The notes under the pieces: generated by a model
The model's database searches: none
What the model saw: only the letters and a program-made list of their open reading frames with translations
What the model was told of the DNA's origin: nothing
DNA from: a virus
Lineage: Duplodnaviria > Heunggongvirae > Uroviricota > Caudoviricetes
Virus record (IMG/VR): IMGVR_UViG_3300031999_000011
Length of the DNA: 13,908 nucleotides
Strand: one strand, 5' to 3'
Program-made: the position numbers and the translations under genes
Shown: positions 5,348-12,646 of the stretch, one piece after another
Layout: the number at the start of each line of letters is the position of its first letter
Numbering within the stretch: position 1 is the first letter of the stretch

Positions 5348-5477
5348 GGAGTGGTAGACCGCTATGGAGACGGGAGGGACTGTGTTGGTCACAGGTGTAA
5401 ATCCAGTTCGATTCTGGAGACCAAAAGAAAATCCCTTGCCTTAGGCTCGCCAGGATCATAACCTGGACGCTCCACCA
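5348..5477 (+). tRNA. tRNA-Tyr(GTA)-like gene with a 45-nt insert in the anticodon loop
   Basis: Acceptor GGAGTGG/ACGCTCC+A+CCA, anticodon stem AGGGA/TCCCT, variable arm GCC-TTA-GGC, T stem CCAGG/CCTGG with atypical loop ATCATAA. Removing 5384-5428 gives CT-GTA-AA. Confidence 0.7.
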
Positions 5478-7301: not shown

Positions 7302-7460
7302 TTGATAGTTACGTTGCGTAGAGAACAGATACTTCATACCGAAAGCAGATTGTCAGGGGTTCGATTCCCTTCTACCTTCCCTTACAAGAAGGTAGTAGCT
7401 CAGTTGGTAGAGCATCCGCCATAAAAAAGACTGTTTTCGTTTTTAACTCGTAGCTATCAA
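7302..7460 (+). ncRNA. UUGCGUA/UACUU scaffold element, copy 3, carrying a circularly permuted tRNA body
   Basis: P1 TTGATAGTTACG/CGTAGCTATCAA; P2 GAGAACAG/CTGTTTTC; ATACTT; tRNA 3' half (7345-7379) precedes 5' half (7389-7419); linker GTTTTTAACT. Confidence 0.85.
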
Positions 7461-7865: not shown

Positions 7866-7978
7866 TATTAATAATACATATGTTGCGTAGAGATCCGTTA
7901 CTTCAAAACATCTGACTTAAAATCTGACACTAATAGTCGGTTTTCATTTTTTTCTCATATGTATTATTAATATAAGTT
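7860..7978 (+). ncRNA. scaffold element, copy 6
   Basis: 23-bp P1; P2 GAGATCCG/CGGTTTTC; TTACTT; cargo TCTGA-CT-TAA-AA-TCTGA; linker ATTTTTTTCT. Confidence 0.85.
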
Positions 7979-11028: not shown

Positions 11029-11126
11029 GGCTACCAGGTTCAGGCCTGATCCTATCCGGGTACCCCTAAGTACACGGGCGACAAGGACGGATTGGTGCTA
11101 GGGTTCGAATCCCTAGCTAGTCGCCG
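11029..11126 (+). pseudogene. long aberrant tRNA-like gene with CTA in a 6-nt loop
   Basis: GGCTACC/GCTAGTC+G+CCG; canonical T arm TAGGG-TTCGAAT-CCCTA; GTAC-CCCTAA-GTAC. Confidence 0.55.
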
Positions 11127-11508: not shown

Positions 11509-11517
11509 AAGTTTATT

Positions 11518-11642
11518 ACCGGAGTGATGGGGAATCGGTATACCCTGGCGACGAATTCATAGTGAGGGAGCAGTCATTGGACTTTCAAAGTAACCTCTTT
11601 CGTAAATTGCTGCTTGTGTGGGTTCGAGGCCCGTCTTTGGTA
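11518..11642 (+). tRNA. tRNA-like gene with about 48 extra nt in the anticodon loop (identity unresolved)
   Basis: ACCGGAG/CTTTGGT+A, D arm GGG-GAATCGGTATA-CCC, anticodon stem GGCGA/TTGCT enclosing 55 nt, T arm GTGGG-TTCGAGG-CCCGT; no encoded CCA. Confidence 0.6.
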
Positions 11643-11662
11643 CTCTAAATTAAAGAATACAT

Positions 11663-12066: not shown

Positions 12067-12185
12067 GGGGATGTGGTGAAATTTGGTATATGCAGCGGAC
12101 TTTTTCAAGGGCTTGTAGTAATACGAGTCTTTCTAAAAATCCGCCGGCTTCGGTCATGCCGGTTCGAGTCCGGCCTTCCCTACCA
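12067..12185 (+). tRNA. tRNA-Leu(TAA)-like gene with a 33-nt insert at anticodon position 34/35
   Basis: GGGGATG/CTTCCCT+A+CCA, Leu-type D loop, GCGGA/TCCGC stem, UUCG variable arm, canonical T arm; removing 12103-12135 gives CT-TAA-AA. Confidence 0.8.
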
Positions 12186-12467: not shown

Positions 12468-12554
12468 GCACTTGTGATGGAACGGTTTACATAGCGGGCT
12501 CAAAACCCGTCCCCCTTGTTAGGGTTGTCAGTTCGAATCTGACCAGGTGTACCA
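12468..12554 (+). tRNA. trnL: tRNA-Leu(CAA)
   Basis: GCACTTG/CAGGTGT+A+CCA; GCGGG-CT-CAA-AA-CCCGT; long variable arm. Confidence 0.93.
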
Positions 12555-12561
12555 AAGTATT

Positions 12562-12646
12562 GCCTTTGTGATGGAATGCATACATGCTTGGCTAAGAACC
12601 AAGTGCCTTTAGTGGATTGTGGGTTCGAGTCCCATCAAAGGTACCA
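12562..12646 (+). tRNA. trnL: tRNA-Leu(AAG)
   Basis: GCCTTTG/CAAAGGT+A+CCA; CTTGG-CT-AAG-AA-CCAAG; long variable arm; canonical T loop. Confidence 0.9.

Follow-up and report, generated by a model that had tools for sequence, protein, structure and literature searches.

A conserved hairpin insert between U34 and A35 of phage tRNA-Leu(UAA) genes, a candidate protein-excised mini-intron

A tRNA-Leu gene in the tRNA island of a large phage is interrupted within its anticodon by a 33-nt hairpin, and this insert is a real, conserved variant of a barely described kind. The gene lies in a window of 13,908 nt, by which we mean the whole stretch of DNA analysed here; the phage is AT-rich (GC 33%), with a contig of at least 120 kb. 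Judged from sequence comparison, the insert is probably a mini-intron excised by protein, which a nuclease would cut out and T4-type RNA ligase 1 (Rnl1) would seal.

The interrupted gene (12067-12185, plus strand, as are all its parts) is laid out in stems and loops as a long-arm tRNA is, with A73 and an encoded CCA. Its 5' exon (12067..12102) supplies the 5' strand of the acceptor stem, a D arm with G18G19, the 5' strand of the anticodon stem and C32 U33 U34, while the 3' exon (12136..12185) supplies A35-A38, the 3' strand of the anticodon stem, a long variable arm, the T arm, the 3' strand of the acceptor stem, A73 and CCA. The acceptor stem (12067-12073/12175-12181) forms six of seven pairs, and the strands of the anticodon stem (12095-12099/12140-12144) are separated by 40 nt. 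Between the exons, the candidate mini-intron (12103..12135) comprises an unpaired 4-nt leader, TTTC (12103..12106; family consensus Y-U-N-C-R), an 11-bp hairpin (12107..12132; arms 12107-12117 and 12122-12132, loop GTAA at 12118-12121) that is supported by folding and covariation and includes three G-U pairs, and an unpaired 3-nt tail, CTA (12133..12135), whose length is near-constant in the family and whose last base is free to vary. All the features described in a first-pass annotation of an otherwise good Leu tRNA carrying an 11-bp hairpin with a GTAA loop were found at these positions. That annotation also drew attention to the loop as a GNRA loop; the GTAA is indeed present in the window, but it is incidental, since the loop is not conserved in the family, and a role for GNRA was rejected.

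Removal of 12103-12135 restores CT-TAA-AA, as had been proposed, and ARAGORN then calls tRNA-Leu(taa). Once the insert is out, the RNA has every attribute of a class II tRNA-Leu: cloverleaf, long variable arm, A73, G18G19, T-loop and CCA. With the insert in place, ARAGORN misses the gene under default settings and calls it Phe(AAA) when introns are allowed, and Rfam gives it a weak tRNA score (30.3 bits); an Rfam search of the window returned no intron family, RF00028 included. The anticodon domain with its insert folds as one long helix (z = -6.2, 0/200 shuffles), in agreement with the earlier suggestion that the flanking T and A runs pair to make a single anticodon-less helix. In the unspliced RNA, U33-U34 can pair with A35-A38, which could also explain the conservation of the flanks. 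In the window, both junctions fall within an internal loop of 7 x 7 nt, and each follows the end of a helix by 3 nt.

Three other, independent assemblies have loci in which the window gene recurs letter for letter, which rules out an assembly error. In a sister phage the gene is 81% identical, and its 32-nt insert keeps every pair and every helix; compared with the window, it has two G-U pairs changed to A-U, another loop and another last base (G in the sister, A in the window). An intronless allele was sought in a close relative, and the sole sister locus also carries the insert. A promoter scan gave results at chance level.

The window alone is ambiguous as to where the insert begins and ends, because dropping 33 nt can leave AAA, UAA, UUA or UUU, and the splice register was accordingly taken from the family of related inserts described below. 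When positions 34-36 were left free in a scan, U34 was present in 23/23 matches, and A35 A36 in all window-like matches. With the junction at 34/35, the spliced products read as Leu(UAA) in 46/46 cases, each having A73 and a long arm, and 43/46 have CCA. A Leu(UAG) gene of the same insert design (G004) behaves in parallel, in that removal at 34/35 restores a Leu anticodon. The last base of the insert (n = 51) is A in 27, U in 10, C in nine and G in five, and it flips between near-identical inserts (C in L133 and A in L193, which are 94% alike), so it cannot be the wobble base. Two other registers were rejected. Register 33/34 would place Phe anticodons on Leu bodies in 32/51 cases and would swap Leu for Phe between near-identical inserts, while register 35/36 would produce the stop-reading anticodons UUA and UCA, yet the phage uses the standard code, with genes that end in TAA, TGA and TAG. 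The family fixes the register as U34^A35, with Leu(UAA) as the predicted product. These data uphold both the identity and the position that had been assigned from the window sequence.

Pattern scans for the family covered viral, metagenome and genome contigs. Eighty distinct Leu-body sequences passed the stem filters, some of which were artefacts of tandem genes or duplications; the family count was made on 51 distinct inserts of at least 29 nt, from which five of other design were dropped to leave 46. These 46 inserts, from viral and metagenomic contigs, are unrelated in sequence and share one design and one site: a leader of 3-5 nt (6 nt in three cases), a stem of at least 10 bp and a 3-nt tail, in a total insert length of 29-43 nt. 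At least nine of ten pairs form in one register in 86% of the 51 inserts, as against 1% of shuffles. Among the same 51, the first leader position is a pyrimidine in 47, the second is U in 45 and the fourth is C in 39. The leader exceeds the tail by 0-3 nt across the family, and because leaders range from 3 to 6 nt, the internal loop is not always symmetric. A loose pattern scan, by comparison, gave 119 matches that were all due to chance.

Additional evidence for the structure came from 12 genes of the window's own subtype. Changes on both sides were seen in nine of ten pairs of the insert stem, as in true tRNA stems; the whole-structure scores were reached by 0/500 shuffles, and no slid register came close either. 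A covariance model built on the 12 genes scored unseen members at 84-119 bits and intact Leu genes at no more than 77. Stem oppositions include 77 G-U and four A-C, an excess that points to the sense strand of an RNA, with the caveat that the choice of register scored G-U as paired. A survey of phage tRNA-Leu inserts had been named beforehand as a check on the first-pass annotation, and it found position and structure conserved in the 46 distinct inserts. Genome-collection contigs gave no match of the hairpin class, no isolated phage record carries the insert, and clustering of the carriers' gene neighbourhoods returned homing endonucleases only.

UUA is the main Leu codon of this phage. TTA accounts for 380 of 630 Leu codons (60%) in the readable phage genes and is the third commonest codon overall. 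Intact tRNA-Leu(CAA) and tRNA-Leu(AAG) genes lie at 12468..12646 (plus strand), and no UAA candidate other than the insert-bearing gene was seen in the window. In the two complete carrier genomes, G001 (360 kb) and G007 (208 kb), genes for other Leu tRNAs are present and an intact UAA gene is lacking, and an intact UAA gene was found in 1/47 loci, with a short-arm body; the intact "UAA" genes of L138 and G004 are likewise short-arm bodies, of 77-79 nt. T4 has an intact Leu(UAA), a single comparison rather than a matched control set. Since the host can supply Leu(UAA), the absence of an intact gene is suggestive only. Insert-bearing genes escape gene finders or are reported as Phe(AAA), so that Leu(UAA) is undercounted in phage tRNA inventories.

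Several features of the Leu gene sets merit separate mention. The window's tRNA-Leu(AAG) (12562-12646) has A34 and would need inosine formation, and the same kind of gene is present in carriers L130, L138, L193, L319 and G004. Short-arm bodies with Leu anticodons (UAA, UAG, CAA) occur at L138 c362-438, at G004 109939-110017 and 110506-110671, and at G002 195473-195572, and one of these has a hairpin insert at 34/35.

On the view that the insert is a short tRNA intron without catalytic activity of its own, its removal can be pictured as follows. The pre-tRNA would fold so that the anticodon stem and the insert hairpin, of at least 10 bp, flank an internal loop; an endoribonuclease, possibly host-derived, would cut at U34^ and ^A35; phage Rnl1 would join the halves into tRNA-Leu(UAA); and the product would read UUA, the phage's commonest Leu codon. 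The near two-fold 7 x 7 layout of the junctions in the window would suit a dimeric nuclease. We infer the excision itself, the role of the ligase and everything said here of the nuclease, and protein splicing best fits the data among the three options first put forward; a nuclease-resistant, unspliced precursor, another of the three, is less probable.

Evidence on the enzymes came from searches of the carriers. Rnl1 was present in 5/5 large carrier records, the only records that lacked it being three fragments, 22-48% complete, and no ligase was seen in the ~50 kb of the window's own phage that were examined. Rnl1 is common in large phages generally (PMC7824862), and its presence is for that reason weak support. 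EndA, RtcB and RNase III were each found in 0/5 carrier phage records. The T4-type Pnkp phosphatase domain (PF25109) was found in 0/6 carrier records with a positive T4 control, which would fit cuts that leave a 5'-phosphate and a 3'-OH. A comparison of five carrier proteomes revealed no shared unexplained nuclease, making a host enzyme plausible. Other genes of the carriers that may act in healing or RNA repair encode a phosphoesterase, a cREC receiver, Thg1 and a CCA enzyme.

The insert might instead act without being removed. Such an unspliced RNA would be an anticodon-less, leucine-chargeable tRNA mimic that resists anticodon nucleases and either acts as a decoy or donates Leu outside the ribosome. 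LeuRS does not read the anticodon, and the Leu identity elements outside it are intact in this gene; the domain folds as one stable helix, the hairpin class occurs mainly in Leu bodies (although the searches were Leu-directed), and the window contains other anticodon-altered tRNA-like RNAs, one of them conserved in the sister phage. We consider this explanation unlikely, though the most serious of the alternatives, since it leaves unexplained why the flanks always rebuild the cognate anticodon (UAA, or UAG in G004), why the insert occupies the group I site and why the gene fills an empty UAA slot; the Tyr, Asn and Lys inserts of the same phages, moreover, affect tRNAs whose synthetases do read the anticodon. 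Another proposal is that maturation is triggered by defence: a host anticodon nuclease would cut 3' of base 34 in the real loop and in a look-alike CUN^AAAA opposite it, and phage repair enzymes would release the mature tRNA only in cells that attack tRNA. Both junctions in the window do resemble a cut after "CUN" past a helix, a Leu(UAA)-loop copy is conserved in a Y-RNA-like scaffold of the same phage, and the carriers have the RNA-repair genes listed above. We regard this proposal as quite improbable, because the CUN tail occurs in part of the family only (the first tail base is C in 18/51), because the T4-type Pnkp needed to heal such ends was not found in the six carrier records searched, and because the carriers are diverse, such that one defence system in all their hosts is improbable.

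Two further explanations were considered. The insert could be a footprint at the DNA level, left by a small mobile palindrome or by the deletion of an intron, that killed the gene. These tRNA arrays often contain homing endonucleases; on the other hand, the exons are intact, every stem shows compensatory changes, the sister gene has diverged to 81% identity with every helix kept, and the strand-biased G-U pairs favour a role in RNA. A footprint is very improbable on these grounds, and a REP- or transposon-type palindrome is disfavoured by the same G-U bias and intact exons. Alternatively, the insert could be what is left of a group I intron, still able to splice either in cis or with the help of a ribozyme core provided in trans. 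Genuine group I introns do occur at U34^A35 in phage tRNA-Leu, one of them with an HNH gene, and the L322 intron opens with a leader and a weak hairpin. This likeness of leaders is no sign of descent, however, as the shared leader was imposed by the search pattern; no core fits in 33 nt, a terminal G is found in 5/46 inserts (the window's ends in A), and the stem is free to covary, leaving no fixed guide sequence. A shrunken group I intron that still splices is barely credible, and the ultra-reduced self-splicing intron suggested at the outset fails for want of a core and a terminal G.

The candidate mini-intron is accompanied in these phages by other interrupted tRNAs. A second gene of the window, tRNA-Tyr(GUA) (5348..5477, plus strand), has a 45-nt insert shaped like a mini-tRNA (5384-5428) at 35/36; its spliced form is called Tyr(gta), and the insert is of a different class. 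The only Asn and Lys genes of G007 are also interrupted in the anticodon (region L358 / L327:3278 and 3559). The Tyr insert of the window and the Asn insert of G007 consist of a stem plus a T arm, measure 45-49 nt, start with G and lie at 35/36, while the G007 Lys insert is a long hairpin at 35/36. Such genes would be useless for decoding unless their inserts are removed, and the interruption of the only Asn and Lys genes suggests that G007 has a working excision route.

Less regular elements were also noted. At 11517-11645, the window contains a tRNA-like gene, 88% identical in sister phage L374, in which a structured insert replaces the anticodon loop and U33 is lacking, and at 11029-11125 an unusual tRNA-like element that matches the sister phage at 93% identity over its inner 73 nt but differs in its acceptor stem. 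G001 has three tRNA genes with structured inserts of 38-55 nt (c137431-137558, c147171-147298 and c147355-147483; L303, L304). These three inserts share AAAYRTCG and TGGTTATC, and one of them has TTGCGTAGAG, which is also the motif of the scaffold repeats in the window. Other short classes of Leu insert lie at 35/36 or 36/37 (L290, L292, L294, L171; L291, L293, L295, L296, L139) and are ~22 nt long where the gene is Leu(UAG) and 26-45 nt long where it is Leu(UAA). In Planctomycetota (L262, L264, L274, L277, L285, L383), a chromosomal tRNA-Leu(CAA) is interrupted at 33/34 by an insert of 26 nt, with U as its first base, G as its last and a 6-bp hairpin. Relatives have near-identical intact exons, and a pattern search of one genome, G012, found no intact Leu(CAA/UAA) gene, compared with 57/61 genomes of its family that have one. 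The Planctomycetota insert is a candidate for a short tRNA intron carried on a bacterial chromosome.

Genes near the tRNA island encode Pth2, YqeY, a bacterial-type CCA-adding enzyme and type I-F Cas proteins, and related carriers encode T4-like capsid and portal genes; a search for relatives with the CCA enzyme as query found none. The type I-F CRISPR-Cas locus of the same phage (L368:1-3400), ~6-10 kb upstream, includes Csy2, Csy3 and a Cas6f-like gene, and the CRISPR array has degenerate repeats. The first-pass annotation had pointed to a matching anticodon loop in scaffold copy 6, a Y-RNA-like element. The match is real: the 11-nt copy of the spliced loop, GACTTAAAATC (7914..7924, plus strand; 0.01 expected by chance), is part of an 18-nt stretch that the sister phage keeps unchanged. 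No part in splicing was found for it; the copy is sense-oriented and so cannot splint the junction. It has no stable fold on its own, and similar copies of the spliced loop were not found in five other carriers; copy 3 (7322-7440) matches Rfam YrlA below the gathering score. The match shows that the Leu(UAA) loop matters to this phage lineage, but scaffold copy 6 does not belong to the intron system in general.

More broadly, we lean towards the view that large phages carry widespread hairpin tRNA introns removed by protein-only cutting and ligation, through an undescribed endonuclease activity and Rnl1, and with neither a ribozyme nor EndA/RtcB. A review describes bacteria as lacking protein-spliced tRNA introns, and no paper on this hairpin class was found in a literature search that had most subscription journals outside its scope. 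If correct, this view would add a third way of splicing tRNA, operating inside bacterial cells; splicing of the insert would imply a new RNA-processing activity to be found and give phage Rnl1 a function other than repair. A 33-nt substrate, a fixed register and 46 natural variants make the question directly testable in vitro.

Among known systems, the group I intron of cyanobacterial and plastid tRNA-Leu(UAA) interrupts the same gene at the same U34^A35 site, in line with the first description of the insert as lying at the classic intron position. Group I introns share this junction in phages too: L325 (c9060-9278) has one in tRNA-Leu(UAA) that ends in G and served as a positive control (RF00028, 53 bits), and L322:1929-2807 resembles a group I intron on visual inspection, contains an HNH gene in its P1 and escapes Rfam at the gathering score. 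Those introns exceed 200 nt, whereas the present insert has 33 nt and no catalytic core, P1 guide or terminal G. Archaeal bulge-helix-bulge introns, for which EndA does the cutting and RtcB the sealing (PMC4090602), are likewise short, structured, non-catalytic and of similar size, and splicing of the phage insert would similarly be by cutting and ligation. They require a 4-bp helix between two 3-nt bulges, however, and 0/46 inserts reach four pairs at 34/35; the present context, moreover, is that of bacterial phages.

Repair by T4 Pnkp/Rnl1 and the toolkits of jumbo phages (PMC7824862) resemble the present case in that carriers have Rnl1, which would ligate an anticodon loop; such repair reseals a nick, whereas here 33 nt must go, and T4-type Pnkp was not found in the six carrier records searched. 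Substrates of RNase III such as T7 R1.1 (PMC1540722, PMC3867540) also have about one helical turn (11 bp) beside an internal loop, and products with a 5'-phosphate and a 3'-OH would suit Rnl1 without healing. The family's floor of 10-11 bp resembles the helix of about 11 bp that RNase III requires (PMC1540722), with at least 10 bp plus 3 nt in 86% of inserts, but a double cut by RNase III leaves 2-nt 3' overhangs, for which leader minus tail would be -2 rather than the observed 0 to +3. The closest published case is that of the longer "enigmatic" tRNA introns of Lak megaphages (Devoto et al. 2019; PMC6784885, Table S6). These are also non-group-I inserts in the anticodon loops of phage tRNAs, conserved across samples and with no Rfam intron match, but those examined measure 79-114 nt, occur in Tyr, Phe, Thr and Gly tRNAs and are at least partly tRNA-shaped, whereas the present inserts are plain hairpins of 29-43 nt at 34/35 of Leu. 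The Lak-like, tRNA-shaped type is represented in the window by the Tyr insert, and the Leu insert belongs to the plain-hairpin family.
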